Origin: Coriobacteriaceae bacterium
GTDB taxonomy: Bacteria > Actinomycetota > Coriobacteriia > Coriobacteriales > Coriobacteriaceae
DNA: 64,000 nt
Assembly (NCBI GenBank): GCA_025993015.1
Contig: DAJPFV010000001.1
Location: 1,608,668-1,672,667 of the forward strand
Reading direction: 5' to 3'
Shown: positions 10,288 through 54,857 of the stretch, piece by piece
How the letters are laid out: each line of letters starts with the position of its first letter
How positions within the stretch are numbered: position 1 is the first letter of the stretch
Translations under genes and position numbers: made by a program
The notes under the pieces: model-generated
What the model was told of the DNA's origin: nothing
The model's input: the letters and a program-made list of their open reading frames with translations, nothing else
Databases searched by the model: none

Positions 10288-12930
10288 ATGTTAGATAGAT
10301 TTACCGATCGAGCGCGCAAGGTCATGTCGATGGCCAAACAGGAGGCGCTCGATCTGCACTCAAATAAGGTGGGCACCGAGCACTTGCTGCTCGCGCTTGC
10401 CAAGGAGGACGAGGGCATTGCCGCCGAGGCGCTGCGCTCGCTCGACATCTCCTACGATGACATCATGGATACTCTCAAAGAGGTCCAGACCACGGTTCCC
10501 GAGCCCAGCGAGGAGACCGAGGCGGCCAAGCTTGCCTTTACGCCGCTCGTCATTAGCGTGATGGAGCGCTCCTTCCGCGTGGCGCGTGAGAACAACCAGA
10601 CCTATGTGTCGACCGAGCACTTGCTGATTGGCATCGTCGAAGAGGGTAACGGCATGGCCATGGACATCCTCATGCGCCTGGGTGTGTCGTCCGCCTCCAT
10701 CAAAAAGGCTATCGAGAAACTTACCGCCAAGGACCAGGACAAGAAGCGTCCGCTCGCCGGCGCCGGTGCCGGGCGTCCCGGTGCGGGCCTGCCGTTCTTT
10801 AGCGGCTCGGACGCGTCGCAGCAAAAGGGGAGCGGCACCGATACGCTTAAGCAGTTCGCCACCAACCTTACGCAGAAGGCGCGCGACGGCGAGCTCGACC
10901 CTGTAATTGGTCGCGAAAAGGAAGTCCAGCGTATGATGGAGATCCTTTCGCGTCGCACCAAGAACAATCCGCTTATCTTGGGCGACCCCGGCGTGGGCAA
11001 GACGGCCATCGTCGAGGGTCTGGCTCAGCAGATTGCAGCTGGCAACGTGCCCGAGAACCTTATGAACCAGAACATCTGGACGCTCGACCTGCCGGGCCTC
11101 GTTGCGGGCGCCAAGTATCGCGGTGAGTTTGAGGAGCGCCTCAAGAACGTGATCCAGGAGGCCACCGAAGCTGACGACGTCATCCTGTTTATTGACGAGA
11201 TGCACACCATCATCGGTGCCGGCTCTGCCGAGGGCTCCATCGACGCGAGCTCCATGCTCAAGCCCGTGCTCGCGCGCGGTGCCTTCCAGATTATCGGCGC
11301 CACCACGGCCGAGGAATTCCGCAAGTACCTCACCAAGGACCCGGCCTTCGAGCGTCGCTTCCAGACCATCGATGTCGAGGAGCCGAGCGTCGAGGACACG
11401 GTCAAGATCCTGACCGCGCTCAAGCCGCGCTACGAGGAGCACCACCATGTGCGCTATACGCAGGGTGCTATCGAGGCCGCCGCGAACCTCTCCGACCGCT
11501 ACATCCAGGATCGCTTCCTGCCCGATAAGGCCATCGACCTCATTGACGAGGCCGGCGCCCGCGCCCGCATCGCCGCCAACCGCGCGCCCGAGCCGGTGCG
11601 CGAGGCCGAGCATCGCGTGGAGGAGCTTAAGGCCGCCGCGCAGGAGGCCACCGAGAGCGACGACATGAACAAGGCCGCCGAGATCACCGAGCAGCAAAAG
11701 GCTGCCGAGATTGAGCTCGCCGAGGCCAAGGCTGCCTGGACGGCCGAGCTCGACGCCAGCCCGCTCACCATCGATGTCTCCCAGATTGCCGACATCGTGT
11801 CCGTGACCTCGGGCGTGCCGGTTTCCTCGCTCACCGAGAGCGAGAGCCGGCGCCTGCTGCAGACCGAAAGCGTGCTCAAGACGCGCATCATCGGCCAGGA
11901 TGAGGCAGTCGAGGCCGTCGCCAAGGCCGTGCGCCGCAGCCGCTCGCCGCTCAAGGACCCGCGTCGTCCCGGTGGCAGCTTTATCTTCCTTGGTCCCACC
12001 GGCACAGGCAAGACCGAGCTCGCCAAGACGCTCGCCGAGTATCTCTTTGGCAGCAAGGACGCGCTCATCAGCTTCGATATGTCGGAGTTTGGCAGTGAGT
12101 TCGAGGTCTCCAAGCTCATCGGTAGCCCCCCGGGCTATGTGGGCCACGACGAGGGCGGCCAGCTCACCAAGGCTGTTCGCCGTCACCCGTACTCGGTCGT
12201 GCTGTTCGACGAGATCGAGAAGGCGCACCCCGACATCTTCAATATCCTGCTGCAGGTGTTGGAGGAGGGCCGTCTGACCGATAGCCAGGGCAAGACGGTC
12301 GACTTCCGCAATACGGTGATCATCATGACGTCAAACGTGGGCGCCCGCGAGATCGCGCAGGATGCGAGCGTTGGCTTTGGCACCACCGGCGAGCAGGGCC
12401 TCACCTCGAGTGAGATCCGCGGCCGCGCGATGGGCGAGCTCAAGCGCCTGTTCCGCCCCGAGCTGCTCAACCGTATCGACGACATCGTGGTGTTCCAGAA
12501 GCTCTCGGGCGAGAACCTGACCAAGATTGCGCACCTGCTGGTGGACGATCTGCGCCAGCGCCTGATCGCAAACGGCATGAACATCAAGCTTACCGATGCG
12601 GCCTACGACAAGATTGTGGCGGAGGGTACCGACCTCACCAACGGCGCGCGTCCGCTGCGTCGTGCCATCCAAAAGCTCATCGAGGATCCGCTGTCCGAGG
12701 AACTGCTGGCTGGCGAGTGGGGCGAGGGCGATACCGTCCTGTGCGACGTGGCCGATGGCAAGTTTGTCTTTAGCCGCGGCACGGGCGAGATCCCGGCACC
12801 GCGTCCGGCGGGCACGCTTGGTGGCGATACCGCCCCGGCGGTACCGCACACCGGCAACGCCGCGCCCGTGAGCGGCGGCGTGACCTCGGGCCCCGGCGGC
12901 ATGATGCAAGCCGGTTCCGGCGCGCTGTAG
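10288..12930 (+). CDS. clpC: ATP-dependent Clp protease ATP-binding subunit ClpC
   Basis: Clp_N repeats ([12 protein letters not shown]...), two AAA+ modules with GDPGVGKT and GPTGTGKT Walker A motifs. The ATG at 10288 has an aagga RBS 7 nt upstream. Confidence 0.93.
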
Positions 12931-21124: not shown

Positions 21125-22465
21125 CTAACTCCATTCAGCGATATCGATCATTCTTTCGAGGCGCCACGTTAGCGCCTCTTTTAGATATGGCAGCCTTGCC
21201 GTGAGCGCGTCGTTTCTGGAAAGAATCTCGATTGCCTCGTCAACGAAGCCTTCGAGTTTGTCGCCGTCAAACCAGCCCATGTCCTCGACGAGCAACATTT
21301 GTTTGGCGGGGCTTGAATGAAATTGTGCGCTGGTAAAACTGTGCTCTCCCGCCCTAAGCTCCTCTAGTGATATGTTGCACCAGAGCGATGAGCCCGAATC
21401 GAAGATGGGGGCAGGTCTGCAGGCTTGCGTGTTTACGTTTCGCACGAGGCCGAAGTTGCGCCAATGACGATCGTAGTTGGCAATGATGTCGTCACATACG
21501 ATCATGCGGTCAAGGGCATCCTTGACGCCTGTCACCCCGAGCTCCTCGCAGTTTGCTACATATCGCTCGTAGTCGGTTAGCCGTTCATCTGCGTTTGCGT
21601 GCTGGTTTACATAGAATGCAGGGACATACTCTTCTTCATCAGTTAAGAAGACATCGCATGTGCTCAGGGCGGAAGTGCCCGTGCCCTCGAGCGAGTAAGG
21701 CACATAATCGCAGGCGTTTAGAATGCGACGGTGGAGCGCGGTCGCCACCAGCTCGTTATAAGGTTCCTGGTCCAGGTGCGCTCCTGCCTTATGCAGAATT
21801 CGACGTTCGCCCTCGCACGTCCAGTACTTTTGAAGATTGCCGTCCGAGGTGTTATCGGGCTTTGCGGCAGCCGCTTTTCCCTCTGGGGCAAAGGGTGCAA
21901 TGGACAGTGAGACGTCATCAAAGGCGTTATTGAAGAAGTTGATATCCTCCCAGGTGAGACCGGAACCTTGGGGCCTAATCCAATACTGGTCGGATAAGGA
22001 GAGGCCGAGATTTCGCTGGACGAGTTCATCGGGAACATCGACTGCGGCTTCTGCAAGCAGGGAGGCTAGCCCAATGCGTGCGAGCGGGATACCGCGGCCG
22101 CGCCACCAGATGCGGAAGGAGTCTAGCGATATGGGGCTATTAGGGCCAAATACTCCAATAGGGGCGTGGGCGTAATCGATGTCGGCACCGATGTGGGTAA
22201 AGTCTTTTCGCGATGTGCTGTAGACCAGCTGAGCGACTTCGTACGTGCGGTTCATGAGGGTGAACGCGATCTCGCTCTTACCGTGGCCGCGGCGGGGACG
22301 TCCCCCCGTTTTGGTCACAGAGCGGAGTCGCGTGTCGACGCTGTCTTTGTCGATGAGCCATACACCAGAAGCCTTGCGGGCCTCAAGTGCTCCGTTTTTT
22401 ATGAGCTCCTGCACCCTGCGCGGAGTGATGCCGAGCAGCTCGGCGGCTTCTTTGGTAGTAAGCAT
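21125..22465 (-). CDS. HipA-like Ser/Thr kinase with fused N-terminal excisionase-type HTH (YjjJ/HipH-like architecture)
   Basis: N-terminus MLTTKEAAELLGITPRRVQELIKNGAL (HTH_17-like). C-terminus ANYDRHWRNFGLV...PIFDSGSSL matches the HipA_C catalytic motifs. The gene is visibly lower in GC than its neighbours. Confidence 0.72.
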   Translation of the reverse strand: MLTTKEAAELLGITPRRVQELIKNGALEARKASGVWLIDKDSVDTRLRSVTKTGGRPRRGHGKSEIAFTLMNRTYEVAQLVYSTSRKDFTHIGADIDYAHAPIGVFGPNSPISLDSFRIWWRGRGIPLARIGLASLLAEAAVDVPDELVQRNLGLSLSDQYWIRPQGSGLTWEDINFFNNAFDDVSLSIAPFAPEGKAAAAKPDNTSDGNLQKYWTCEGERRILHKAGAHLDQEPYNELVATALHRRILNACDYVPYSLEGTGTSALSTCDVFLTDEEEYVPAFYVNQHANADERLTDYERYVANCEELGVTGVKDALDRMIVCDDIIANYDRHWRNFGLVRNVNTQACRPAPIFDSGSSLWCNISLEELRAGEHSFTSAQFHSSPAKQMLLVEDMGWFDGDKLEGFVDEAIEILSRNDALTARLPYLKEALTWRLERMIDIAEWS

Positions 22466-22475
22466 CGCGAAACCC

Positions 22476-22536
22476 TTCGCCAGAACGAATAGTTTTATAT
22501 ATAGCAATTGTAATTAAAACTATTCGTTCTGGCGAA
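22476..22536. promoter_or_regulatory. Perfect 22-bp inverted repeat separated by a 17-bp AT-rich spacer, candidate autoregulatory operator of the HTH-HipA gene
   Basis: ttcgccagaacgaatagtttta (22476-22497) / taaaactattcgttctggcgaa (22515-22536), starting 11 nt upstream of the ATG. Confidence 0.45.
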
Positions 22537-41170: not shown

Positions 41171-41237
41171 ACTTGCGGTGAAATAGCTCCGATCTGGGGC
41201 ATCAACCAGCCCATCCAGGAACTATTCCACCGCAACT
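41171..41237. repeat. 67-nt palindromic element, copy B
   Basis: acttgcggtgaaatagctcc ... ggaactattccaccgcaact. Confidence 0.8.
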
Positions 41238-41460: not shown

Positions 41461-41616
41461 ACTCTCCTGCCTGTCCCCATCGCACCGATCTGTCGATTGA
41501 ACGTCGTTGTGTGTTCGCGCTATCATGCATGGTTACAATTGGTTAGCCATGGCAAACGGTTAGCCATGGTGAACATAAATACAACGCCCTGTGGGCGCCG
41601 GGGGAGGAACACGGAC

Positions 41617-43977
41617 GTGAAGCTCGATACACTCGAGATTGGAAAGGACGCCGTTGTCGCATCGGTGGCATCGGACGATCAGGCACTCCGACAGCATATT
41701 TTGGACATGGGTCTAACGCCGGGCACCGAAGTCACCATGATGAAGTACGCCCCCATGGGTGACCCGCTCGAGATCCGCCTGCGTGGCTACGAGTTAACAC
41801 TGCGTAAGGACGATGCCGCACGCATCGAGCTCGTGGGTATTCACGACACCGATACGGGTCCGCGCGCTAACGCCGCAATCGGCACGACGGAGCATCCGGC
41901 CCTGGGCGAGGGGACGTATTCGCCCCGTGCGGCAAAGACGGCCGTGCCAGAGGGCGCGCCGCTGCACTTTGCCCTCGCCGGCAACCAAAACTGCGGCAAG
42001 ACCACGTTATTCAACCAGCTGACGGGCTCCAACCAGCATGTCGGTAACTTTCCCGGCGTGACGGTCGACCGCAAAGATGGCACCATCCGTAACCATCCCG
42101 AGGCGAGCGTTACCGACCTGCCCGGCATTTACTCCCTGTCGCCGTACACAGGCGAGGAGGTCGTGAGCCGTCAGTTCATCCTCGACGAGCGTCCGGACGC
42201 CATCATCGACATCATTGACGCCACCAACATCGAGCGCAACCTGTACCTGACACTGCAGCTCATGGAGCTTGACCGTCCTATGGTCATCGCGCTCAACATG
42301 ATGGACGAGGTGACCGCCAACGGCGGCGCCGTGGACGTCAACTTGCTCGAGAGCCTGTTGGGCGTGCCCGTTGTCCCCATTAGCGCTGCCCGCAACGAGG
42401 GCATCGGCGAGCTGGTGGACCACGCCCTGCACGTGGCGCGGTTCCGCGAGCGCCCTGGTCGCCTGGACTTTTGCGCGCCCGACGGTCCGGACGGCGGTGC
42501 GCTGCATCGCTGCATCCACGGTATTGCTAACCTGATCGAGGACCATGCCGTGACGGCGCACATCCCGGTGCGCTTTGCGGCGACCAAGCTGGTCGAGGGC
42601 GATGAGCTGGTAACCGAGGCGCTTCACCTGGATCGCAATGAGCTCGACGCTATCGAGCACATCATTACCCAGATGGAGGGCGAGGCCGGCACCGACCGCC
42701 TGTCCGCGCTGGCCGATATGCGTTTTAGCTTTATCGGCGACGTGTGCGGGCGTTGCGTCGTTAAGCCGCACGAGAGCCGCGAGCACGTGCGCTCCGTCAA
42801 GATCGACCGCATCCTGACGGGTCGTTACACAGCCATTCCGGCGTTCCTGGTGATCATGGGTCTCGTTTTTTGGCTGACGTTTGGCGTGATCGGCGCGGCG
42901 TTACAGGGACTTATGGAGGACGGCATCGCTGCCATCATCGCCTCGGCCGATGCGGGCCTCAAGGCATTCGGAACCAACGACGTGGTGCGCTCGCTGGCTG
43001 TCGACGGCGTGCTGACGGGCGTGGGCAGCGTGCTGACCTTCCTGCCGATTATCGTCGTGCTCTTCTTGTTCCTCTCCATTCTGGAAGACTCCGGCTACAT
43101 GGCGCGCGTGGCCTTTGTCATGGATAAGGTATTGCGTCGCTTTGGCCTGTCGGGCCGCAGCTTCGTGCCCATGCTCGTCGGTTTTGGCTGCACCGTGCCG
43201 GCTATCATGTCGACCCGTACGCTTCCATCCGAGCACGACCGCAAGATGACGGTCATGCTCACGCCGTTTATGAGCTGTTCGGCCAAGTTGCCGGTCTACG
43301 GTCTGCTGTGCGGGGCGTTTTTCCCGCAGGCGACAGTTCCCGCCATGGTCTCGCTCTATCTGATCGGCATTGCGGTCGGTTGCATCGCGGCTTTGGTGCT
43401 TAACCGCACGGCATTTAAGGGCGACCCGGTGCCGTTTATCATGGAGCTTCCCAACTACCGCCTGCCGAGCGTCAAGACGACGGTGATGCTGGCATGGGAT
43501 AAGGCCAAGGACTTTATTACCAAGGCCTTTACCATTATCTTTGCCGCTACGGTGGTCATCTGGTTCCTGCAGACGTTCGATATCCGCTTTAACGTGGTCG
43601 CCGATCAGTCGCAGAGCCTACTTGCCGGTCTGGGTAGCATTATCGCACCGGCGCTGACGCCGCTTGGGTTTGGCGACTGGCGTGCATCCACGGCGCTCGT
43701 CACCGGACTTATCGCCAAGGAGAGCGTCATCTCGACCCTTACCGTGCTTTTGGGTGCAACCTCGCCCGCGGCACTGTTGACCATGTTTTCGCCGTTTACC
43801 GCCTACGTGTTTCTGGTCTTTACGCTGCTGTACCCGCCCTGCGTGGCGGCAATCGGCGCCGTCAAGAGTGAGCTGGGCGCGCGCTATGCCGTTGCCGTGT
43901 TCGCGTTTCAGGTGACGGTCGCCTGGATCGTGGCGTTTGTCGTGCATTCGGCGGGCATATTGCTGGGGTTGGCTTAG
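41617..43977 (+). CDS. feoB: Ferrous iron transporter, FeoA-FeoB fusion
   Basis: N-terminal FeoA SH3-like domain (LDTLEIGKDAVV...GLTPGTEVTMMKYAPMGDPLEIRLRGYELTLRK). G-domain ALAGNQNCGKTTLFNQLTG...DLPGIYSL. Polytopic C-terminus. GTG at 41617 with a gggagga RBS. Confidence 0.9.
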   Translation: MKLDTLEIGKDAVVASVASDDQALRQHILDMGLTPGTEVTMMKYAPMGDPLEIRLRGYELTLRKDDAARIELVGIHDTDTGPRANAAIGTTEHPALGEGTYSPRAAKTAVPEGAPLHFALAGNQNCGKTTLFNQLTGSNQHVGNFPGVTVDRKDGTIRNHPEASVTDLPGIYSLSPYTGEEVVSRQFILDERPDAIIDIIDATNIERNLYLTLQLMELDRPMVIALNMMDEVTANGGAVDVNLLESLLGVPVVPISAARNEGIGELVDHALHVARFRERPGRLDFCAPDGPDGGALHRCIHGIANLIEDHAVTAHIPVRFAATKLVEGDELVTEALHLDRNELDAIEHIITQMEGEAGTDRLSALADMRFSFIGDVCGRCVVKPHESREHVRSVKIDRILTGRYTAIPAFLVIMGLVFWLTFGVIGAALQGLMEDGIAAIIASADAGLKAFGTNDVVRSLAVDGVLTGVGSVLTFLPIIVVLFLFLSILEDSGYMARVAFVMDKVLRRFGLSGRSFVPMLVGFGCTVPAIMSTRTLPSEHDRKMTVMLTPFMSCSAKLPVYGLLCGAFFPQATVPAMVSLYLIGIAVGCIAALVLNRTAFKGDPVPFIMELPNYRLPSVKTTVMLAWDKAKDFITKAFTIIFAATVVIWFLQTFDIRFNVVADQSQSLLAGLGSIIAPALTPLGFGDWRASTALVTGLIAKESVISTLTVLLGATSPAALLTMFSPFTAYVFLVFTLLYPPCVAAIGAVKSELGARYAVAVFAFQVTVAWIVAFVVHSAGILLGLA

Positions 43978-44058: not shown

Positions 44059-44097
44059 TATAATCGCCTCCGCTCAAAATGATTGGAGACGTTATAT

Positions 44098-45294
44098 ATG
44101 AGTCAGGCAAGGCAAGATGGCATCACGCTCAAGCAGTGGCTCCCGCTTATCGGGCTCACCTGCTGCGCGTTCGTGTTCAACACGTCGGAGTTCATGCCCA
44201 TCGGTCTGCTGACCGACATCGCCGCATCGTTTTCGCTCACCGAGGCCCAAGCTGGCATCATGATCTCGGTCTATGCCTGGGGCGTCATGCTGCTGTCGTT
44301 GCCGCTCATGGTGTTCGCTTCGCGCTTTGAGTTCAAGCGGATGCTGCTCGGCGTGCTTGCCGTGTTCTCGCTGGGCCAGTTCCTGTCCGCCGTGGCGCCG
44401 ACCTATCCCATTCTGGTCTGCGCACGCCTGGTGGTTGCCTGCGCGCACGCCGTGTTCTGGTCGGTCGCCTCGATCATGGCGTCGCGTCTGGTTGACACGC
44501 GCCATGGGGCGCTCGCCATCAGCATGATCGCCACGGGCTCTTCCATCGCACAGATCTTCGGCCTGCCGCTCGGCCGCGCCATTGGCCTGGCCGTGGGCTG
44601 GCGTATGACGTTTGCCGTGGTTGGGGCCCTCTCTGCCGCTGCGGTGGTGTACCAGGCCACGGTGTTCCCCACCATGCCGGCGGGCGAGCGTTTTACGCTC
44701 AAGCAGCTGCCCGAGCTGCTCAAGAGCCCGTTCCTCATCGCTCTCTACGCCGTTACGGTGTTCATGGCGACCGGCTATTACGCGGGCTATAGCTATATCG
44801 AGCCTTTCCTGGCCCAGGTCGCGCATGTCGACGCAAGCGCTATCACTATGACGTTGACGGCGTTCGGCTGCTCCGGCCTGGTGGGCAGTTGGCTGTTCGG
44901 CCGCCTGTTCGACGGGCACCGTTTTCCGTTCCTTGCGATCACGCTCTCCGGAGTGCCGGTCGCCTTGCTGCTTATGGGATCTGTCGCGTCATCGCTCGCG
45001 GCGGTGCTTGCCGTCTGCGCGCTATGGGGCTGCTGCTCCACGGCCTTTAACGTGGCGTTTCAGGCCGAGCTCATCAAGTACACGCCGGTGGATTCGTCGG
45101 CCGTCGCCATGTCGATTTTCTCGGGCCTGTTTAACCTCGGTATTGGCACGGGTACCGCGATCGGCGGAGCCGTGGTTTCGGGTCCCGGTATCGCCTTGAT
45201 CGGCTACGCGGGCGGTGCGATCGCTGCCGTGGGCGTCATCCTCGCTATCACGGTGATGTTCCCGGCCATTCGTCGCGCAAAGCCTGTCGCCTAA
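44098..45294 (+). CDS. MFS transporter (sugar/drug efflux-like, 12 TM)
   Basis: 398 aa polytopic protein with the MFS loop motif (LVDTRHGALAISM...) and 12 predicted helices by eye. Confidence 0.8.
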   Translation: MSQARQDGITLKQWLPLIGLTCCAFVFNTSEFMPIGLLTDIAASFSLTEAQAGIMISVYAWGVMLLSLPLMVFASRFEFKRMLLGVLAVFSLGQFLSAVAPTYPILVCARLVVACAHAVFWSVASIMASRLVDTRHGALAISMIATGSSIAQIFGLPLGRAIGLAVGWRMTFAVVGALSAAAVVYQATVFPTMPAGERFTLKQLPELLKSPFLIALYAVTVFMATGYYAGYSYIEPFLAQVAHVDASAITMTLTAFGCSGLVGSWLFGRLFDGHRFPFLAITLSGVPVALLLMGSVASSLAAVLAVCALWGCCSTAFNVAFQAELIKYTPVDSSAVAMSIFSGLFNLGIGTGTAIGGAVVSGPGIALIGYAGGAIAAVGVILAITVMFPAIRRAKPVA

Positions 45295-45309
45295 CCACGT
45301 CCCCTCATC
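45238..45309 (+). repeat. Left copy of the 72-bp direct repeat flanking the island (functional 3' end of the MFS gene plus 15 nt)
   Basis: Aligns without gaps to 52704-52775 with 9 mismatches by my hand alignment. Confidence 0.85.
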
Positions 45310-45376
45310 AGTTGCGGTGAAATACGGACTGCTGGGCCCAATAAACCCGGCAAACAGTCCGCATTTCACCGCAACT
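45310..45376. repeat. 67-nt palindromic element, copy C
   Basis: agttgcggtgaaatacggactg ... cagtccgcatttcaccgcaact. Confidence 0.85.
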
Positions 45377-45440
45377 TAGAAAGGGACTGGGGTAGCTAAT
45401 TTGGGACGGGGCTTTTTTAGCTACCTCGCTGAGCATACGT

Positions 45441-45490
45441 AAAAGAGGCCGAGGCCGCTCCGGTGTGTGCTGGAGTGGCCTCGGTTTTGT
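45441..45490 (-). terminator. Long hairpin terminator at the 3' end of the island operon (bidirectional)
   Basis: aaaagaggccgaggccgctccgg ... ctggagtggcctcggtttt. Confidence 0.6.
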
Positions 45491-45507
45491 GTCTGCGTAT
45501 GATCGAC

Positions 45508-45876
45508 CTAGAGCTCGTCTTGGGGGACGACAGCCGTAAGTTGCTCGTTCTCAAATACCGCAGCAAGTCCGTGTTCGGGGTCAAAGCGATAGTTGCACAT
45601 GAGCGCTGCTTTGCGAGCATCATCGCTCCGAAGTACCACGATACTGGTCGGAATAACGTATCTAAAGATGTTTGTAATGGGGCCCTCGATCTGATCGCCG
45701 TCTCTTTCGAGACAATAATCTTCGATCGCTTCCTTGCTGTCCTCAACGGTATCCCAGCTTGCAAGCAGGGCGCCCTTTGCTTCCTTTTGAATGTCGAGGA
45801 CGCCTTGGTCCGAGTCACACTCGTAATAGACGGGGAGCGAGAAATCCCTGCCCCACAGATTCATGCCGTTAGTCAT
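45508..45876 (-). CDS. Small acidic protein, putative cognate immunity protein of the upstream nuclease
   Basis: The call rests on position only: it lies immediately 3' of the toxin gene and overlaps it (ATGACTAA). 122-126 aa, with no signal peptide or TM helix. The maximal ORF starts with TTG at 45888. Confidence 0.4.
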   Translation of the reverse strand: MTNGMNLWGRDFSLPVYYECDSDQGVLDIQKEAKGALLASWDTVEDSKEAIEDYCLERDGDQIEGPITNIFRYVIPTSIVVLRSDDARKAALMCNYRFDPEHGLAAVFENEQLTAVVPQDEL

Positions 45877-46558
45877 CGAAGCCGCCAATCTGATTCAGTA
45901 TGTTTTTGATTTCGCTTACGCCGCCGAGATGGCTGCACACCTTGTGAACTTCGGTCGGAACAAGAGAGCACGTCTTCATATCATTGTGTTCGTGCCAGGT
46001 GTACTCATTTACCTCGCGCCATTTCTTGACATCCTGGTGCGTCCAATCATCTTTGCCATCGCGTTGCTCAAGGTTCCAAGCTTTTGCGCATTCAGTGTCT
46101 GCCTTTTCATAGTTGCCGACAATGCGTTCGCCGTTCTCGCCCATCTGCGAAAGCCTATGCTGGCTCATGCCTTGTATGGTTACTTTCGCTTCAGAGATAG
46201 GGTTGAAGTCAGGAATTCCATCCTTGTAATTGATGCCCTCAAGACCTTTGTTTCGAAGAATCTCGCGGACCCTATCGGCTGTGGGAATAAACATCGATTC
46301 CCCTCGGTCACCCGACCATTTTCCGTTTGGATTCTCGATGCTCGGTGTACGGTCCAGCCTCTCCTTATAGCTCGAAGGATAATCGCACGATTCCACCGAG
46401 GGTCTAATCAATTTGTCGGGATCGATGGATTCGTTACGGCCGGCATTTTTAACCTCTGCCTTGGTTTCCTTTGATTCGGGGCCAATGAGTTTATCAGGAT
46501 TGAACCCAAGTTTATCGCCTAGCTTGGCCACGCCGCCTTTCATTTGCTTGAACTCCAT
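45869..46558 (-). CDS. HNH/EndoVII-fold nuclease toxin (WHH-like polymorphic-toxin domain) without a recognisable trafficking domain
   Basis: C-terminal KWSGDRGESMFIP...GIPDFNP...YTWHEHNDMKTCSLVPTEVHKVCSHLGG resembles the WHH/GH-E class of toxin nucleases. TAATG overlap with the ATPase gene. Confidence 0.6.
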   Translation of the reverse strand: MEFKQMKGGVAKLGDKLGFNPDKLIGPESKETKAEVKNAGRNESIDPDKLIRPSVESCDYPSSYKERLDRTPSIENPNGKWSGDRGESMFIPTADRVREILRNKGLEGINYKDGIPDFNPISEAKVTIQGMSQHRLSQMGENGERIVGNYEKADTECAKAWNLEQRDGKDDWTHQDVKKWREVNEYTWHEHNDMKTCSLVPTEVHKVCSHLGGVSEIKNILNQIGGFDD

Positions 46559-49500
46559 TAGCTCACCTCGCTATTCTCGTTCCAGTTGTGCCAATCGGAA
46601 TATGCTTGGGTATCTTGCATTTGCAGACACAAGACATCGGTCATGATGCCCTGGATGATGACCTGCCTGGTGCGGCTGTCGATATCGCGGTCGATTGAGG
46701 ACCTGAGTGCCGCGTCCGCCGCCATTGTCCATTGTTCGGCTTCATCGCTGCACTCGCGTTCGTCCTCGACCGCTTTGGCAACGTTGGGAAACAGTGTGCT
46801 CATTATGGGTCCCAGCTTGGTCATGCGCGGTTCGGCGGGTGGGTTTTGAACGGTGCGCAGGATCTTGACCTTTGTAGACGCGTCGATATGGAGGCGATCG
46901 AGCCGTTCGCGAATGCTGTGCAGCTCCGTCTTGGTTCCGATGCTGATTCCGTAGGCCAGCATGCGCGCTACGGCAAGGGCATCATCGCTCTGGTTGCTTG
47001 CGACATCGTCGATGGGGCGGCTGTATGCAAAGTGCGCGCCATCCTCTGCTTTGGCGATCTTGCAGAGCACCGGCTCAACCCAATCGTTTTGGTAAATGGC
47101 CGCAACGCCTTTAGGCAGGCGTGCCAGTTCGACGATCTGTTGGTCGTTGAGGTTGGCGGCGCGACCGGCGAGCTCGCGGTCCGAAAGATCGGGCAGGCGA
47201 TGGATGATCTTGGTATTTGTGTTGCGAATGGCTGCCATATCGAGAAGTCCGGGCGCCTGGTCGGCGATGATGAAGCCTTCGCCGTATGTACGCATCTCGG
47301 CGATGGCATTTGAGATCATCTCGACGCTCTTGCCTGTCAGGTCGCCGCTTTCCGAGCCTTGGCTGCTCGACGATCGCTTAAGCAGGTTGTGCGCCTCTTC
47401 AAGCACGGTCAGATGGCGAAGTGGCTGGTTCATGCCCTTTTTCTCGGCCATGCGATGTTCTTGAAGTTTGAGTACAAGAAGACCCATGAGTAGGGATTTT
47501 GTTTCGGCGGAGCCAATGCGCGATAGGTCGATGACTGTGTTGGCGTCAAAAAGCACGGTGGCGTCGACTTCGTTCGACGAAAGCATCATGCCGTTGAGCC
47601 CGTTGGTGAGTGAATTGAGACGTGTGAGCAGCGAACCCTTGTAGGCGCCCTTATTTTCGGCGTCGTACTCGCTGGAATCGAGAATCTCGCGGACGTTGCG
47701 GGCAACATCTGCAAAGCAAGGAAAGAGATCGGCTCCATATGGGTTATCAGAAGCGGCAAGGTCCCATCCACAGTCTTCGTATGACCTGGCGACGGCGTCT
47801 TTAAGGACGGCGGGCATGGCGGCGTACATGGGCCAGCAGACATTAAAGATCTCAGCGAGTCGGTCGAGGTGTTCCAGCACATGGATGCCGGACGGGAAGC
47901 TAAAAGGATTGATACGCAGGAGCGGCGTGAATTCTGGATTGGTTCCAAAGACGTTTACGTCTTCGCGGGCTCCATACACGTCCTTGTATTCGCCCTTGGC
48001 AGGTTCAATGACAAGGAAGTTGACTCGCTGATCGAGCGCTTGGTCGAGGATGCGACAGACGGTATTGGTCTTTCCTGCGCCGGTGCTGCCCGTAACAAAG
48101 GTGTGCGAGGCAAGTGAGTCCTTTGACAGGAACGTTTCGATGCGTTCCTCGCGATGCATATGGAAAACCTTGCCTATGCAAAGGCCCTGCTGAGGCTGCG
48201 TACCATCGAACGTAGAGACGTTGCGCCCAAAAGAAGCGCATTCGATAACGGGCAACCCTGGGACGGACTTCTTGGGAAAGTTGAGCGAATAGGCCAGCTC
48301 CTTGCCCGAAAGGGCAGTCGTTGCATCGACCGTTGCCGGATAGACCGAAAAGCTCGGATGTTGATCGAGCAGGGCGGGGGAGAGGGCAAAAGCAGGATGG
48401 CGCAAATCGCGAAGGTAGGAGCAGATTGCCGTGGCGTCGGCGCTTTGCTCTCCAAGGTCTCCGCGCCAGAGGTTTACTGCAGCCTGAGACATATAGGATT
48501 CTTTGCCCTGGGTGAGGGCGAGATAGGTGTGGGCAACGTTATTCGCGACGTTGTGGTCTTCTGCTAGCACGTAGGCGCAAAAGTCCCACATGCCGAGTGC
48601 CGAGGCAAGGTCGTAGCGCTTCATTTGCAACTCAAGTATTTCGAGCGCGTGTTGGATGGAGTAATTCTTGAACGTCTGCGTGATGCCTTCGTCGGCGCCG
48701 ATGGTAGCGGTGACCGTGCTTGAGCGTGCGAACGATCCGCCAAAGTTGGCACCTAGATTTACTGCCTGCGAAACACCGGAAGTCACGGAAGCTCCCTTAG
48801 AGACAGCCTTGCCAACACCGCTGGTGACGGCTTTGCCGAGCGTGTTGGATATGGCCTTGCCGGTAGATGAGCTTGTACCTGTTGCCGTGGACGTGGAGTG
48901 CGACGAACCCTCCGTGTGACTTGCGGATACGCCTAAGTCAACGCCTCCGCTCGAGGACTCATTCCTGCCGTCGGTGACCGTATCCGTGATGCTTTCGGTC
49001 GATGTGGACGAGTCGGTTACGCTCTCGTTGCTCGATTCCGAGGTCGACTCGTTTGTCGAGTCCGTTTCGTTGTAGTTTTGAGCAACAGCCTGATTATTTC
49101 CCACCTGTCTGCCGGCGCTCACACCTGCATTGATGCCAATCGTCGCGGACGATCCGATGGAGTCGTTCTGGTGATGGGTGTAGTTGGTCGTCCATGAGGC
49201 ATAAGGCGTTAGCAGTGAGTGGAGTTCGGCGAGGCGGAGTTTGCGCGATTCGATATCATGGATCGGGGTTGCGAGCAGCACGATAGTGTAGTCTTCGCTC
49301 GGCCTACCGGGCACAATGCCGTCGAGAACCTTCTCAATAGTTTGCGTGACGAACTTCTCGTTCTTTTCGGCTGGAATATTCGAAACGGCGGCAACCGAAG
49401 ACGGGCGTCGATTGTCTAGACACGGAATGGGACCGCGGTTGGCGGGCCCCACTTCGGAACCGGGGAAGTTGCCCCTCAAGGCATCCGACATGCGCCGGGA

Positions 49501-49989
49501 AAAATTATCGGCGTCGATGTTGTCGCGAGCATTGTCGCTATTGACGACTGCGAGAAATACCTCGGTGCTTGCGCTGGTTCGATTAAAGATCAGCGCAATG
49601 TTGCATTCTTCGTCAGAAAGAACGTCGTACACATTTACAAGCTTCTCGAGACTGTCCTCGTTGGGATCGACGATCCACTTCGTGATATTCATGAAGCGGA
49701 TGTTGTTGTCGGCGTTAAAGCCCATGGGGTATTCAATGGAGGGGTCAATCGGCGCGTAAACATTTCGCAGCTGCGGCAGATAGGCGTTGTGAAGCTCAAC
49801 GGCGGCAGTTGCCAAGAGCCGATTGGTGAGCTCGACAGCTTGCTCGTCTGCCGGATTCGGCTTTTCTGACAAGTATGCTGTTCGCTTTTGGTCGACCTCA
49901 TCGAGCTGGGAGCTGCTGAGTACCGAGACGGTTGCGACCGCGTTGCCGGCTTTATCGGCAGCGCGCATAATCGCGTTTTTGATGCCCAT
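46558..49989 (-). CDS. Large HerA/FtsK-superfamily P-loop ATPase with an unknown N-terminal region of about 590 aa and a Ser/Thr/Gly low-complexity insert
   Basis: HAS-barrel-like CIGKVFHMHREERIETF, followed by Walker A FVTGSTGAGKTNT, Walker B LTVLEEAHNLL, and IIADQAPGLLD...IIHRLPD. Confidence 0.75.
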   Translation of the reverse strand: MGIKNAIMRAADKAGNAVATVSVLSSSQLDEVDQKRTAYLSEKPNPADEQAVELTNRLLATAAVELHNAYLPQLRNVYAPIDPSIEYPMGFNADNNIRFMNITKWIVDPNEDSLEKLVNVYDVLSDEECNIALIFNRTSASTEVFLAVVNSDNARDNIDADNFSRRMSDALRGNFPGSEVGPANRGPIPCLDNRRPSSVAAVSNIPAEKNEKFVTQTIEKVLDGIVPGRPSEDYTIVLLATPIHDIESRKLRLAELHSLLTPYASWTTNYTHHQNDSIGSSATIGINAGVSAGRQVGNNQAVAQNYNETDSTNESTSESSNESVTDSSTSTESITDTVTDGRNESSSGGVDLGVSASHTEGSSHSTSTATGTSSSTGKAISNTLGKAVTSGVGKAVSKGASVTSGVSQAVNLGANFGGSFARSSTVTATIGADEGITQTFKNYSIQHALEILELQMKRYDLASALGMWDFCAYVLAEDHNVANNVAHTYLALTQGKESYMSQAAVNLWRGDLGEQSADATAICSYLRDLRHPAFALSPALLDQHPSFSVYPATVDATTALSGKELAYSLNFPKKSVPGLPVIECASFGRNVSTFDGTQPQQGLCIGKVFHMHREERIETFLSKDSLASHTFVTGSTGAGKTNTVCRILDQALDQRVNFLVIEPAKGEYKDVYGAREDVNVFGTNPEFTPLLRINPFSFPSGIHVLEHLDRLAEIFNVCWPMYAAMPAVLKDAVARSYEDCGWDLAASDNPYGADLFPCFADVARNVREILDSSEYDAENKGAYKGSLLTRLNSLTNGLNGMMLSSNEVDATVLFDANTVIDLSRIGSAETKSLLMGLLVLKLQEHRMAEKKGMNQPLRHLTVLEEAHNLLKRSSSSQGSESGDLTGKSVEMISNAIAEMRTYGEGFIIADQAPGLLDMAAIRNTNTKIIHRLPDLSDRELAGRAANLNDQQIVELARLPKGVAAIYQNDWVEPVLCKIAKAEDGAHFAYSRPIDDVASNQSDDALAVARMLAYGISIGTKTELHSIRERLDRLHIDASTKVKILRTVQNPPAEPRMTKLGPIMSTLFPNVAKAVEDERECSDEAEQWTMAADAALRSSIDRDIDSRTRQVIIQGIMTDVLCLQMQDTQAYSDWHNWNENSEVS

Positions 49990-49998
49990 ACGATCAGC

Positions 49999-52581
49999 CT
50001 ATTCCTTCCAATTAATGACGCGCGCAATGTATTCTTTTCGATTGTTGAGTGTCTCGAGTTTTGCCTCGAGAGCGTTGATCTCCGCGGTTTGCCTGTTGAT
50101 GTCTTCGACATGGCCATGGAGCACCGGGTTGTAGTCGGTGATATTGCTCGTAATTTGGCCAAGCAGCTCGTTGAGCCATTCGGTAAAGCCGTAGGTATGC
50201 TCGCGCTCTATTTCGGCGCGTGCTTCGCAGAAACACCGTGAGATTTCGCGGTTGAATTTATCTTCGACTTTCCTAAGCAAAAGCTTGTCGGATTTAAAGA
50301 TGACACGGTCCATGAGCTTCAGTTCGGTAAAGTCTGCCTTGCTGAAAATGGGGCCCTTTGTCTTATCGAGCGCGAGGCCACGATATTTAAGAATGATATC
50401 GCCGACCTCTTGGCGCTTTTCTTCGGAAAGAGGATTGTCACTGCTGGTAGCGATGCGATAGAGGGCATCGCGGCTATGCTCCGCACAATCCTTCCAATAG
50501 CTTTGCGACAGCTCATCGATGGTCTGAGCTATTTGCTCGGTACATTCGTCATAGTGATTGATGACCTCGTTAAAGAGTTGGTCAGCGGCATCTTTGTCGG
50601 CTGTTCTTTCGGCAGCCTTTGCATCGGATCTTTTGTGAAATGCATCGGTTATGTCATCGCAAAGACCCTTGCCAACGTCCGCAAGGCCACCCGTTGGACA
50701 AGGTTCACTATCCTTTTGCGCATTGACCTGGCTTCCCTTTATGGAGTCGCCGAGCCTATTGAAGAAGTTGGGTGCAATCGAATCAAATGCTTTCGCTGCC
50801 GCGATTGAGCGTTTTGAGTACTCGAGCCCCTCTCGCTTTTCCTCGGTAATGGCGTTTTGGCGTGCCTGGAGCGCATCAAGACTGGTCTCCCATTGTTTGG
50901 CCGAAACCCTCTTGTCGATTGTTTCCCTATAGCTTGCCGAAGCATCCTCCTTTGCATGCTCCTTGCAGGCTTCGAGCTGATCGATAAGAGCGCGCTTATC
51001 CTCTTCGAGTTCGGCTTCTCGCTGCGCTTTCTTTTGTTCAAGGTCGGTTTTCTTGTCGGCAATCTCTTCTTCGGTTATGCCGACAATTTCTTGCAGAAGT
51101 GATTCCGACCTGCTGCATTTGTTATATGCGGAGTACCGTTCGGCAAACAGGCGTATTTCGTTCTCGATGCAAAAGAGTCCGCTATTGGCAAGAAGGAGGT
51201 CCTTGCAAGCCTCGGATTCGCGATTGGTTCTGCGCGAGATCTGTCCCGGAAGGATATCGTAACGGTAGAGCGTTTTGTAGAAGCGGCTTGTCGGGTCGGT
51301 GTATTTACGCTGCTGGTCTTCGAATCTTTCGGCATAGTTGTCGCTTATAAACTCGCCGGAGTTCTTTGAGCCTAGGCCGAGGATGGAAGAAACAAAGTAG
51401 ATACCTTGACCATAGAGCCTGGACGGAATGAACTGGCGCATGATGTCCGAGACTCGTTCGTCGTCAAACCCGCCTTTGGGAAGGTCGGCGGAATCCGCCT
51501 TGTTGACTACGATCATGGCAAAGCGTTCATCGATTGCGGGGATCTCCTTTATTTCGTTGGAGAGGTTCTCGTTGTCTTTCGTGTCGAGTGTGGTGTACTC
51601 GGCAACGAAAATGGGAAGACCGTTCGAGAGGCCTTCCATGGCTTGTTTGAGCACTCGGGCGTGATCGACGTTGGAGGCAGAGTTTGACCCCGGGGTGTCA
51701 AAGATGACAAACTCCCTGTCGTGAGGCCATGGATCGGTATCGCTAAAGGGCACTTCGATTCTGATCAGATCGGAGATGGTCCGGTCGTCTTCATCGGCAT
51801 GGTATGAGTTAAGAACCTTGAGGGCGCTGTTCATATGAGAGGCCATGCCGGGCATGGAGTCGGCGACTTTGGCCGCGATCTTGTCGTATAGGGGCTCCCC
51901 CACAAGCTCTTTGTTTTCCATGAGGCCATCAAGATCAAAGCGCAGCAAGAACCGCCTGCTGCCACAGGAGAATTGAACCATCGCGCGATCTCGGTCTTTT
52001 GAACGTTTGATTTGAAATATGCGGGCCGTTACAGGCTCGTCGCCGCTGGGAAGGATCTCCATGCCAATGAGGGCGTTGATGAGCGTCGATTTGCCTGCAC
52101 TATAGTTGCCGAGCACACACAGCGGGATGATGTCGCTCGAGACATCGGTGAACTTCCTAATTTGCTCAGAGACTTTTGTTCGCTCGGAGACTGCTTCGTC
52201 TACAAGCCCCTGGATTTCTCTGAAGACTTCGACAATTTCCGGCAAGACGTCACGGGCGTTTGATAGATAGCGCTCGTCTCGTATGACCTCGTATGTATTG
52301 GCACGTGGCCCTTCGGTGCAGATGGCGAGCAACTCCTGCCATTCGTCGTCTGCTCCTTCAAAATGCAATTCAATTCTGTCGCCACCACCAAACTCTTTGG
52401 CGAGGATGTCGATGATCTCTTCGGCCTTAAAGGGGAAGAAACCATTAACGATCTTCGTGCTATGGAGCGCGCTATTGGGATTTGTAGATGTCGTTATTTC
52501 TTGCCAGCCGTTATCCCATCGGAAGAACCGGACAATTTCTTGATATGGATTGCTGACGATCTTGATTTTAATGTCTGCCAT
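49999..52581 (-). CDS. Dynamin-family large GTPase (bacterial dynamin-like protein) with an N-terminal extra domain and a long helical C-terminus
   Basis: G1 GNYSAGKST, G3 IFDTPGS, G4 VVNKAD. The C-terminal roughly 400 aa are rich in heptad-like charged helices. There is a 9-nt gap to the ATPase gene. Confidence 0.75.
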   Translation of the reverse strand: MADIKIKIVSNPYQEIVRFFRWDNGWQEITTSTNPNSALHSTKIVNGFFPFKAEEIIDILAKEFGGGDRIELHFEGADDEWQELLAICTEGPRANTYEVIRDERYLSNARDVLPEIVEVFREIQGLVDEAVSERTKVSEQIRKFTDVSSDIIPLCVLGNYSAGKSTLINALIGMEILPSGDEPVTARIFQIKRSKDRDRAMVQFSCGSRRFLLRFDLDGLMENKELVGEPLYDKIAAKVADSMPGMASHMNSALKVLNSYHADEDDRTISDLIRIEVPFSDTDPWPHDREFVIFDTPGSNSASNVDHARVLKQAMEGLSNGLPIFVAEYTTLDTKDNENLSNEIKEIPAIDERFAMIVVNKADSADLPKGGFDDERVSDIMRQFIPSRLYGQGIYFVSSILGLGSKNSGEFISDNYAERFEDQQRKYTDPTSRFYKTLYRYDILPGQISRRTNRESEACKDLLLANSGLFCIENEIRLFAERYSAYNKCSRSESLLQEIVGITEEEIADKKTDLEQKKAQREAELEEDKRALIDQLEACKEHAKEDASASYRETIDKRVSAKQWETSLDALQARQNAITEEKREGLEYSKRSIAAAKAFDSIAPNFFNRLGDSIKGSQVNAQKDSEPCPTGGLADVGKGLCDDITDAFHKRSDAKAAERTADKDAADQLFNEVINHYDECTEQIAQTIDELSQSYWKDCAEHSRDALYRIATSSDNPLSEEKRQEVGDIILKYRGLALDKTKGPIFSKADFTELKLMDRVIFKSDKLLLRKVEDKFNREISRCFCEARAEIEREHTYGFTEWLNELLGQITSNITDYNPVLHGHVEDINRQTAEINALEAKLETLNNRKEYIARVINWKE

Positions 52582-52703
52582 CGTTCAACTACCTTTAGTA
52601 GATCAGGTGCGGGAATATGCCGCCTTTATCATAGGGTAGCCGCCCGTGCGGACACCCCTCTATTCGCTCGGCGGCATCTCGGCAGTACCATTTATTTGGC
52701 AAG

Positions 52704-52760
52704 ATCCTCGCCATCGCCGTAATGTTCCCGGCCATACGCCGCGCAAAGCCCGTCGCCTAA
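52704..52760 (+). pseudogene. Orphan duplicate of the last 18 codons plus stop of the MFS gene (right island boundary)
   Basis: Translates to ILAIAVMFPAIRRAKPVA*, compared with ILAITVMFPAIRRAKPVA* at the real gene end. There is no upstream reading frame. Confidence 0.8.
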
Positions 52761-52775
52761 TCACGTCCCCTTATC

Positions 52776-52842
52776 AGTTGCGGTGGAATAGTTCCTGTTT
52801 AAGGCCTCTGAAGGCCCAGGCAGGAACTATTCCACCGCAACT
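52776..52842. repeat. 67-nt palindromic element, copy D
   Basis: agttgcggtggaatagttcctg ... caggaactattccaccgcaact. Confidence 0.85.
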
Positions 52843-52913
52843 TATTTTGGGGGAGAGGATACAAGCCGGGCATACAATGGATGTCGTTGTGTTGAGCTTA
52901 TCGGGAGGTTGCT

Positions 52914-54290
52914 ATGTGGGCATACGAGACGACGTTCTATCAGATCTATCCGCTGGGCTTTTGCGGGGCTCCGCGCGAGAACGTCGCGCCCGTTGCCGAG
53001 GATGAGCTCGCACAGGCCGCCGACGCCGCGTCCAACCCCGATGCTCCCATCATGAAAATCGCCCAATGGGCCGATTACCTGCAGGAGCTCGGCGTTGGCG
53101 CTGTGCTGATCAACCCTCTGCTTGAGTCCGATAGCCATGGCTATGACACGCGCAGCCTGCGCCACGTTGACCGTCGTCTGGGCTCCGATGCCGATTTTGC
53201 GGCCGTATGCGAGACGCTCCACGCCCACGGTATCCGCGTGGTGCTCGATGCGGTCTTCAACCACGTCGGCCGCGGCTTTTGGGCCTTCCGCGATGTACAG
53301 GAGCGCAAGTGGGATTCTCCCTACAAGGACTGGTTCCACATTAACTTCGATGGCGACTCCTGCTATGGCGACGGTTTTTGGTACGAGGGCTGGGAGGGCC
53401 ATTTTGAGCTCGTCAAGCTCAACCTGCAAAACCCCGCCGTGGTCGATTATCTGCTCGAGTCCGTGCGAACCTGGGTCGATGTTTTTGGCGTCGACGGCCT
53501 GCGCTTGGACGTCGCCTACATGCTCGACCGCGATTTCATGCGTCGTTTGCATAGCTTTGCCCGTGAGCTCAAGCCCGGCTTTGTGCTCATTGGCGAGACG
53601 CTCCACGGCGACTACAACCAGATCGTCAACGACGAGATGCTCGACTCCTGCACCAACTACGAGTGCTACAAGGGCCTGTACTCCAGCTTTAACTCGGTCA
53701 ACATGTTCGAGATCGCCCATTCGCTGCACCGCCAGTTTGGCGGCGACCCCTGGTGCATCTACCGCGGCAAGCACCTGCTGTCGTTTGTCGACAACCACGA
53801 TGTGCCGCGCCTGGCAAGTATCCTCACCGACAAGTCGTGCCTGCGTCCCTCCTATGGCATGCTCTTTGGCATGCCGGGCATCCCGTGCGTCTACTATGGC
53901 AGCGAGTGGGGAATTGCTGGCGAAAAGGGCGGCCCCGATGGCGACTGGGCGCTGCGCCCTGCGCTCGATGAGCCTGCGCCCAACGAGCTGACGGCGTTCA
54001 TCACGCAACTCGCACACCTTCGCTCGGCCGACGACGCGGCTGCCCGTGCTCTCAACTACGGTGCCTATCGCAACGTGGTGATCCAGAACAAGCAGCTGCT
54101 GTTCGAGCGCGCCTGTGACGGCGCGACGGTACTCGTGGCGGTGAACGCCGTGGGCGAGCCTTACACCTTTGGCGCCGGCGAACTCAACGGCTCCTTCGTC
54201 GACCTGCTTGCCGACGATGCTCCCACGGTCGAGCTGACGGGCACCCTTGAACTTGCACCCTACGAGGTGCGCTATCTGTTGAGAGCCTAG
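52914..54290 (+). CDS. GH13 alpha-amylase-family glycoside hydrolase
   Basis: Conserved regions DAVFNHVG, GLRLDVAYM, LIGETLHGDY, FVDNHDVPR. Confidence 0.88.
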   Translation: MWAYETTFYQIYPLGFCGAPRENVAPVAEDELAQAADAASNPDAPIMKIAQWADYLQELGVGAVLINPLLESDSHGYDTRSLRHVDRRLGSDADFAAVCETLHAHGIRVVLDAVFNHVGRGFWAFRDVQERKWDSPYKDWFHINFDGDSCYGDGFWYEGWEGHFELVKLNLQNPAVVDYLLESVRTWVDVFGVDGLRLDVAYMLDRDFMRRLHSFARELKPGFVLIGETLHGDYNQIVNDEMLDSCTNYECYKGLYSSFNSVNMFEIAHSLHRQFGGDPWCIYRGKHLLSFVDNHDVPRLASILTDKSCLRPSYGMLFGMPGIPCVYYGSEWGIAGEKGGPDGDWALRPALDEPAPNELTAFITQLAHLRSADDAAARALNYGAYRNVVIQNKQLLFERACDGATVLVAVNAVGEPYTFGAGELNGSFVDLLADDAPTVELTGTLELAPYEVRYLLRA

Positions 54291-54293: not shown

Positions 54294-54857
54294 ATGGCCG
54301 TGTCTGACGAGGACTATCAACATATTGAGCATGGGTTTGAGCCTGTGTTCGACCAGCGCTCGCGCGTTTTGGTGCTGGGGTCGTTTCCCTCGGTGCTCTC
54401 GCGTGCCAATGCCTTCTACTATGGCAATCCGCAGAACCGCTTTTGGCGTGTGATGGCCGCGTGCCTCGGTGTATCCGTGCCGTCCAACGAGGGCGATCCT
54501 TTGGCAAACGGTGAGCCCGCGACGCTCGATGCCTCCATTGCCGCCAAGCGGGCCATGCTGCTGAACGGCAGCGTGGCCCTGTGGGATGTGATCGAGAGCT
54601 GCGACATTAAGGGCTCGAGCGACGCCAGCATCAAAAACGTCGTTCCGGCACATATTGAGCGCATTACGGGCAATGCGCCTATTGAGCTGGTGGTGTGTAA
54701 CGGAGGTACGGCGGGGCGCCTCTATAAGCGCTATCTAAAGGAGCGGACAGGCCTGCCCGCTGTCGTATTGCCGTCAACTAGTCCCGCTAACGCGGCTTGG
54801 CGTCTGGAACGTCTTGTTGAGCGTTGGCGCGAAGCCGTTGACTGGATCGCACGGTAG
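54294..54857 (+). CDS. DNA-deoxyinosine (hypoxanthine) glycosylase, UDG superfamily
   Basis: VLVLGSFPSVLS...YYGNPQNRFW...LPSTSPANA motifs. Confidence 0.7.
   Translation: MAVSDEDYQHIEHGFEPVFDQRSRVLVLGSFPSVLSRANAFYYGNPQNRFWRVMAACLGVSVPSNEGDPLANGEPATLDASIAAKRAMLLNGSVALWDVIESCDIKGSSDASIKNVVPAHIERITGNAPIELVVCNGGTAGRLYKRYLKERTGLPAVVLPSTSPANAAWRLERLVERWREAVDWIAR

Follow-up and report, generated by a model that had tools for sequence, protein, structure and literature searches.

Systems related to the island

Campbell-type integration is the insertion of a non-replicating circle, e.g., a suicide vector, through a segment that is homologous to the chromosome. The homologous segment becomes a pair of direct repeats, and the two copies are reciprocal hybrids. 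The locus described here has the same architecture. It is made up of a 7.3-kb island of four genes that lies between the genes for an MFS transporter and a GH13 family protein, in a 64,000-nucleotide stretch of DNA from a Coriobacteriaceae bacterium (hereafter the window). Unlike suicide vectors, this is a natural case in which no circle was detected, and the homology is just ~170-200 nt at ~88% identity. IMEX elements use XerCD acting on dif sites. Like them, the island is without a recombinase and is flanked by repeats of host sequence. It differs from them in that no dif-like site was identified, and the palindrome found in its repeats is dispersed and is missing from one side in some carriers.

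The nearest natural parallel to the island is the e14 element of Escherichia coli, which integrates into icd, where a 163-bp icd' pseudogene is split off and the element supplies a near-synonymous 3' end (PMC6379469, PMC13626634). Recombination between the copies restores a single intact gene (PMC6379469, PMC13626634). The island shares with e14 and phage 21 at icd a duplicated 3' end of a protein gene, mainly synonymous differences between the copies, and one orphan fragment (PMC6379469, PMC13626634). In contrast to e14, it has no integrase or excisionase; the e14 family needs an integrase. Its duplication also spans the whole downstream spacer, and the private change is in the orphan copy rather than in the copy attached to the gene.

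For present-day behaviour, the nearest parallels are the minimal mobile elements (MMEs) of Neisseria and the defence hotspots of E. coli and Pseudomonas, which are moved by recombination in conserved flanks (PMC3787668). They resemble the island in having no mobility genes, in occupying the same two conserved flanks, and in their variable presence (PMC3787668). Mosaic identity from homologous recombination and small palindromic repeats in the spacer are further points of likeness (PMC3787668). MMEs, however, are not defined by target duplication, and a single cargo type was found at the island site.

The 67-nt palindromic element in the repeats is similar to REP/BIME, Correia, and MITE-like palindromes. 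It is dispersed, has a constant length and conserved inverted termini, and is found in intergenic positions after stop codons. As in REP and MITE-like elements, its presence and its orientation are polymorphic at one orthologous site. Unlike for those elements, no target-site duplication, transposase, or Rfam family was found for it, and its interior varies yet remains self-complementary. An analogy with integron attC sites was rejected, as IntI is absent and the GTT...AAC ends run in the reverse order.

An island boundary of this kind is unusual but not unprecedented. Its value is that of a natural, cleanly resolved, defence-like island with attL/attR-like boundaries and no recombinase, from a gut actinobacterium that belongs to a group whose mobile elements have been little annotated. 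An undescribed four-gene cassette and a family of hairpin repeats are by-products of greater novelty.

The repeat pair at the island ends

The direct repeats found by reading the sequence occupy window positions 45238-45376 and 52704-52842 and surround the island. The left copy is composed of the last 18 codons and stop of the MFS gene (45238-45294, plus strand, 57 nt), a 15-nt spacer (45295-45309, plus strand), and a 67-nt palindrome of type A (45310-45376). The right copy is composed of an orphan MFS 3' fragment that carries a Thr>Ala change (52704-52760, plus strand), the spacer (52761-52775, plus strand), and a 67-nt palindrome of type B (52776-52842). An initial annotation of this DNA had described the same arrangement at both intervals, and it was confirmed.

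The MFS transporter gene is located at 44083-45294 on the plus strand (Pfam MFS_1, E = 2e-40). Its likely start is at 44098, which gives a product of 398 aa. The identical call was made in L001, and the product is annotated as an MFS transporter in C. aerofaciens NZ_OY725717. The right core flank of the island is the GH13 alpha-amylase family gene (52914-54290, plus strand; Pfam Alpha-amylase, E = 1e-43), which is annotated in the same replicon. The surroundings also include FeoAB (41497-43977) and a UDG-family glycosylase (54294-54857). For the MFS and GH13 proteins, the only exact matches came from two short contigs, which belong to one sample and are both broken at the repeats.

The 72 non-palindromic nucleotides align without gaps and differ at nine positions (45246, 45250, 45252, 45255, 45270, 45273, 45285, 45295, and 45306), in agreement with the nine mismatches previously counted by hand. 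A repeat finder reported the pair as an ungapped 87-nt match of 89% identity (family D4). When the 72 nt were compared with the window by BLAST, the second copy was the sole match, with a significant E = 3.7e-21, and the next best had E > 0.4. Seven of the differences are in the coding part. Six of these are synonymous changes at third positions (P = 0.007 for at least six of seven by chance), which bears out the description of the divergence as nearly all synonymous. The one non-synonymous difference is Thr>Ala (ILAITVMF vs ILAIAVMF).

The 15-nt arms of the palindromes have one mismatch between the left and right copies, at 45320. The interiors differ at 26 of 37 positions, yet each is self-complementary, and the two are unrelated in sequence.

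Extent of the duplication and its breakpoints

The initial annotation placed the end of the repeat at the palindrome. The interval is as described, but the duplication is longer. Alignment of the junctions defines the duplicated unit as running from MFS codon -18 to GCATAC, ~40 nt ahead of GH13 (window 45238-45438 and 52704-52875). It takes in the final 54 nt of the MFS gene together with the entire spacer. Similarity seemed to stop at the palindrome because the two copies carry different spacer alleles.

The left copy of the target (45238-45438, plus strand) contains the MFS end, the spacer, palindrome A, and a linker with a second hairpin, hp2 (~45389-45427), and ends in GAGCATAC (45431-45438). 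Homology to its segment 45377-45438 is found in the spacer that precedes GH13 at the 'A-short' empty sites (L008, L056, and L077) and in the right copies of L073 and L109. The right copy (52704-52875, plus strand) contains the orphan MFS end, the spacer, palindrome B, and a T-rich flank that reaches GCATAC (52870-52875). Beginning with the palindrome, it corresponds to the common allele of empty sites and differs from L003 at 3 positions in ~145 nt. Between the copies, the island proper (45439-52703, minus strand) begins with GTAAAAGAGG and ends with TTTATTTGGCAAG.

A single pair of breakpoints is shared by all 17 carriers, i.e., the window and 16 others. Right junctions read TTT[A/G]TTTGGCAAG/AYCCTCGCC in 15 of the 15 that are readable, and left junctions read GCAT[A/G]C/GTA[A/T]AA in 13 of 13 (the slash marks the breakpoint). 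With these exact junction sequences, reads or cultures can be screened for excision.

The distal half of the left copy is fully linked to the variant of the island's left end. Variant I occurs with palindrome A and hp2 (8/8) and variant II with palindrome B (5/5). In the variant II carriers (L033, L052, L041, L111, and L114), the left copy has the common spacer, palindrome B plus TTATTTTGGGGG...GGGCATGC. All of the allele types of empty sites occur in the distal half of the right copy, namely palindrome B, B in flipped orientation, a hybrid of A and B, hp2 alone, or no element together with a 19-nt deletion. The linkage pattern is therefore reciprocal, with the left distal half tied to the island and the right distal half made up of empty-site alleles.

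The right boundary of the duplication, GCATAC/AATGG (window 52870-52880), falls inside a TACAAT hexamer that resembles a -10 element and precedes the GH13 start codon by ~35 nt. The left copy holds just half of this putative GH13 promoter.

Empty and occupied sites in Collinsella

A scan with the MFS protein, limited to one genome per species, gave 80 Collinsella loci with 10-kb flanks from at least 558 matching genomes. Sites were sorted by how far the GH13 start codon lies from the beginning of the repeat unit. Empty sites with one palindrome measure 210-211 nt (57 loci, as well as L002, a fragment from the window's own sample). Empty sites without the palindrome measure 136 nt (3 loci), and the empty 'A-short' sites, which have palindrome A and the second hairpin hp2, measure 239 nt (9 loci). 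Two aberrant loci measure 365 nt. The island is present at ~7.6 kb in four loci and in the window, and two more carriers among the 80 loci are interrupted by contig ends.

Approximately 70 of the 76 scorable Collinsella loci are therefore empty, as is the site in the annotated C. aerofaciens replicon NZ_OY725717. An empty site in which the MFS gene is followed by one palindrome and then by GH13 had been predicted, and 57 of the 76 scorable loci have this form; three more lack the palindrome and nine have a variant spacer. Island-free relatives with both copies of the repeat would have spoken against an insertion, and the scan of 80 Collinsella loci found no second copy of the MFS end in any island-free genome. 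The suggestion that the island would be found beside MFS homologues in other strains was borne out by the 16 other carriers, all at the same site.

Across the 7 genomes and the 10 metagenome contigs, the latter recovered with a pattern search, the island is always at the MFS-GH13 site. The interval between the two genes is occupied either by a spacer of 79-308 nt or by the 7.3-kb island. Among 90 loci, no alternative cassette was found at the site, which has one cargo type with two left-end variants. The best flank identity between a carrier and an empty site is 94-97%, in a set of genomes that are all of different species and include no near-clonal pair.

In the two aberrant loci, L071 (~1324-1420) and L072 (~11141-11240), which have 365 nt to GH13, similarity in the MFS 3' end is lost after ...ATACGCCGC, where a different palindrome, ATGTGACAAAGGGACAGTCCCTTTGTCACAT, takes over. 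Their contigs are labelled Acutalibacteraceae or 'bacterium' and are probably mis-binned Collinsella.

The orphan fragment and recombination between copies

Each of the six synonymous differences between copies A and B falls at a site that varies among 79 intact MFS alleles, and copy B has the majority base at 4 of them. The Thr>Ala change is observed in 0 of the 79 intact alleles and in 9 of 15 orphan fragments. The orphan fragment is an ordinary Collinsella MFS allele that drifted once after translation ceased. This supports the earlier view that the second copy evolved as coding sequence. As to the related claim that this copy arrived from another genome, later homologous recombination has blurred which copy is foreign. 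The labels 'host-like' and 'island-linked' are likewise fuzzy for the alleles, as the window copy A allele occurs in carriers and in empty sites.

The empty site of L003 is identical to window 45145-45319, and from 45320 on it has palindrome B like the window's right copy. It has the form predicted for a recombinant, with copy A as far as 45319 joined to copy B from 52786. The 13-nt stretch ATCAGTTGCGGTG (45307-45319, also 52773-52785, plus strand), which is the left arm of the palindrome, is identical in both copies. The switch from the L003-like allele to the island-linked allele in this genome falls within 45307-45319. A reciprocal exchange between the copies inside ATCAGTTGCGGTG may have produced the L003 site or may have started from it. 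The resemblance is suggestive only, because both halves are common alleles and the window copy A is also found in carrier L015. Other carriers have allele switches outside 45307-45319, and later recombination confounds the pattern.

Sliding comparisons of identity show that the flanks and the island are both mosaics of 80-100%. A uniformly higher conservation of the island than of its flanks had been expected, and this argument was given up for one from particular near-identical tracts. Between the window and L015, near-identity begins at 45198, within the MFS gene, and extends to ~49000; L033 and L111 share a near-identical tract with the window at ~50400-52500. In the window's flanks, identity to L015, L033, and L111 is only 87-96%. 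In the middle of the gene for a dynamin-like GTPase (50600-51000), the window differs by 17-28% from L015, L113, L116, and L118. This pattern of identity indicates that two deeply diverged alleles of a segment of the dynamin-like gene recombine among islands. The island is thus exchanged piecewise between lineages, and the crossovers lie within it as well as in the flanking gene. The initial annotation had left mobilisation to an enzyme acting in trans, to homologous recombination, or to the palindromes. Homologous recombination is demonstrably at work, which narrows these options and does not close them.

The 67-nt palindrome family

The arm motif of the palindrome occurs 8 times in the window, in 4 elements, against 1.1 expected. 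The two further copies are located at 41171-41237, where a hydrolase gene stops 28 nt before the element, and at 3876-3942, where a ThrE-family gene stops 37 nt before it. Each of the four window palindromes follows a plus-strand stop codon at a distance of 16-37 nt. The 1.49 Mb of Collinsella loci contain 128 copies, of which 123 have a length of exactly 67 nt. The arms are invariant (AGTTGCGGTGRAATA / TATTYCACCGCAACT), and the interiors are variable and self-complementary. The copies fold into long hairpins, with energies of -33 to -62 kcal/mol and z values of -5 to -10. With an outer CCCC/GGGG stem, the element extends to ~90 nt. The 3' flank is T-rich in most copies, as it is in terminators. 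The element is a dispersed family of terminator-like hairpins that is undescribed in Collinsella.

No Rfam family was found for the palindrome; a search of 40-54 kb at a permissive threshold returned only sub-threshold matches to microRNA hairpins. No target-site duplication was found at the flanks of the four window palindromes, and no transposase was found among the window ORFs tested.

Across genomes, the MFS-GH13 site contains subfamily A, subfamily B, A/B hybrids, an interior in either orientation, or no element. The right copy is without a palindrome in four carriers (L073, L109, L052, and L114), and the palindrome is for this reason regarded as a passenger. It had been proposed as part of the island boundary. 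It is present in both copies in the window but is not specific to boundaries, given the two further window copies, and it is dispensable in the right copy.

The hairpin hp2 was considered as a second dispersed repeat and rejected, as it occurs once in the window. Its loop is inverted in window 45389-45427 relative to L008, L056, and L077 (~11290-11330) and to the right junction of L073, and the stems are the same. The inversion resembles a template-switch or flip event at a hairpin. In L013 (~11255-11318), palindrome B is broken after ...AGCAGGAA by unrelated sequence just ahead of the contig end. This interruption may be an insertion into the hairpin.

Origin of the island

A direct duplication of ~100-200 nt of the target is not the footprint of a transposon. 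The favoured reading, held with a little better than even confidence, is an att-type integration, whatever its catalyst, followed by spread, reshuffling, and loss driven by recombination. The incoming DNA, presumably a circle, would have carried a homologous copy of the MFS end and spacer. A single reciprocal crossover between the chromosomal site and the carried copy (attB x attP, or Campbell-type) would have left the target duplicated on both sides. The carried copy would derive from another Collinsella lineage, and the differences between the copies would be synonymous polymorphisms because of that origin. The first crossover could have been made by RecA or by a recombinase that acted in trans or has since been lost. 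Afterwards, the island would have been kept, traded in pieces, and lost through RecA-type recombination in the flanking genes and within the repeats, with the 15-nt arms of the resident 67-nt hairpin as frequent switch points. Identical junctions are predicted both by one ancient insertion with subsequent recombination and by repeated site-specific integration. On the favoured reading, the empty sites, the spacer alleles, the one pair of breakpoints, and the mosaic island show how a cassette can persist and move by homologous recombination after a single integration.

Searches for an intermediate covered several collections. The 10 metagenome carriers all have ordinary chromosomal right junctions, and none has a circle junction. 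No tandem form and no plasmid or phage bearing attP was found in the phage and plasmid collections, IMG/VR, or the metagenome contigs. The right junction had no match in the phage collections, and the only relevant match in the plasmid collection was a 900-kb C. aerofaciens replicon with an empty site. In IMG/VR, a 17-mer that includes the private marker gave 19 matches, all by chance (25-40 of 72 identities).

The island could instead be a decayed element of the e14/icd type. A prophage or integrative element with a tyrosine recombinase would have targeted the MFS 3' end and brought a substitute end with it, and a subsequent deletion would have removed its integrase module and left attL, a defence-like cargo, and attR. 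Elements of this type are marked by a duplicated gene 3' end whose differences are mostly synonymous, the duplication is bounded on its left side within coding sequence, and a homologous cassette in L084 is located near a Phage_integrase gene and transposases. Set against these points, all 17 carriers have the same four genes without a recombinase, no larger occupant of the site was found in 90 loci, and there was no phage match. The genome scan covered 80 of at least 558 matching genomes, a sample that could miss an integrase-bearing relative at this site. The gene-attached copy is also a common allele and the orphan has the private change, which is the reverse of e14 unless the two were later swapped. 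An origin of this kind is unlikely, at perhaps one chance in four. In a purely local history, the island would have overwritten a second MFS gene in tandem with the first, or a spacer duplicated in tandem, and the orphan would be what was left. Such a history would account for a fragment that is in frame and evolves like coding sequence. It is quite improbable, as ~76 scorable loci include no second MFS gene or duplicated spacer that lacks the island, and the fragment always ends at the same breakpoint against island DNA.

The palindrome itself offers a different mechanism, in which an active cassette without a recombinase uses the dispersed 67-nt element as a recombination site for a host enzyme that acts in trans, in the manner of XerCD at dif for IMEX elements or of REP-associated enzymes at REP sequences. 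In the window and several further carriers, alleles switch within the conserved arms; at this one site, subfamilies A and B are seen to swap, hybridise, and flip; and the island has no recombinase of its own. However, the duplication reaches well past the palindrome on both sides, the right-copy palindrome is absent from the four carriers listed above, and neither of the other two palindromes in the window bears an island. The arms are also the longest perfect identity between the diverged alleles, so homologous recombination would prefer them too, and no candidate enzyme was identified. The mechanism is accordingly given a low probability. An equally low one is given to its widest form, in which the cassette would be currently active with an attP-like copy, strand exchange would take place in the hairpin arm through a host enzyme that acts genome-wide, and the hairpins would be a general docking system of Collinsella. 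Similarity by chance, or by the palindrome alone, was ruled out with near certainty. The palindrome is indeed a dispersed repeat, but the 72 non-palindromic nucleotides give E = 4e-21 by themselves, and the similarity recurs in all carriers whose right junction is readable.

Cargo of the island

The island has a G+C content of 0.50-0.57, compared with 0.59-0.63 in the flanks. Four co-oriented genes on the minus strand fill 45508-52581. The first encodes a dynamin-like GTPase of 860 aa (49999-52581, minus strand; Pfam Dynamin_N, E = 5e-18) with 1588 homologues. It is followed by a DUF87 (HerA/FtsK-like) P-loop ATPase of 1143 aa (46558-49989, minus strand; PF01935), which has NCBIfam and PDB matches to HerA and a serine-rich N-terminal half. 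The third product is a nuclease of the WHH / colicin-DNase family with 229 aa (45869-46558, minus strand; PF14414, E = 4e-13; PF12639, E = 5e-13). The fourth gene of the operon encodes a DUF6985 protein of 126 aa (45508-45888, minus strand; Pfam PF22481, E = 1e-7), which the initial annotation had not listed. This protein is possibly the immunity partner of the nuclease. The DUF6985 gene is placed likewise in L083 and L085-L088, and its end overlaps the nuclease gene in a similar way. A G+C-rich hairpin at 45445-45485, with T-runs on both strands, is the likely operon terminator. The minus strand of 45436-45490 folds at -24.7 kcal/mol (z -5.4) and is then followed by CCUCUUUUAC.

No recombinase or transposase domain was found in the four island genes with Pfam, NCBIfam, or PADLOC, in line with the earlier statement that none lies between the repeats. 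No recombinase was found among the ~40 window ORFs tested, ~30 of which lie beyond the island. PADLOC gave weak, partial matches only: LeoBC (8e-10, over a short C-terminal stretch) and LeoA (6e-5) of the Eleos system for the GTPase, and HerA/mad8 (1e-17 to 1e-8, over the ATPase core) for the ATPase. The nuclease had no PADLOC match, and there was no system-level match for the four-gene cassette. Literature searches for DUF6985, or for dynamin-like proteins with DUF87 and defence, also returned no match. The operon may be an undescribed defence or toxin-immunity system.

The same four genes are found in the same order at 40-66% identity in other Coriobacteriia and Clostridia (L083, L084, and Lawsonibacter L085-L088). 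Besides the L084 cassette, these include one in L083 (10001-17203) between glnE and metF and one in L085 (10001-17260). No direct repeats bracket the cassettes in these other taxa, and the duplication therefore belongs to the Collinsella insertion rather than to the cargo.

Elsewhere in the window, 23 kb from the island and upstream of tuf, a 460-aa ORF (21125-22507, minus strand) has an N-terminal HTH_17 domain (excisionase/MerR-type) and no other recognised domain.
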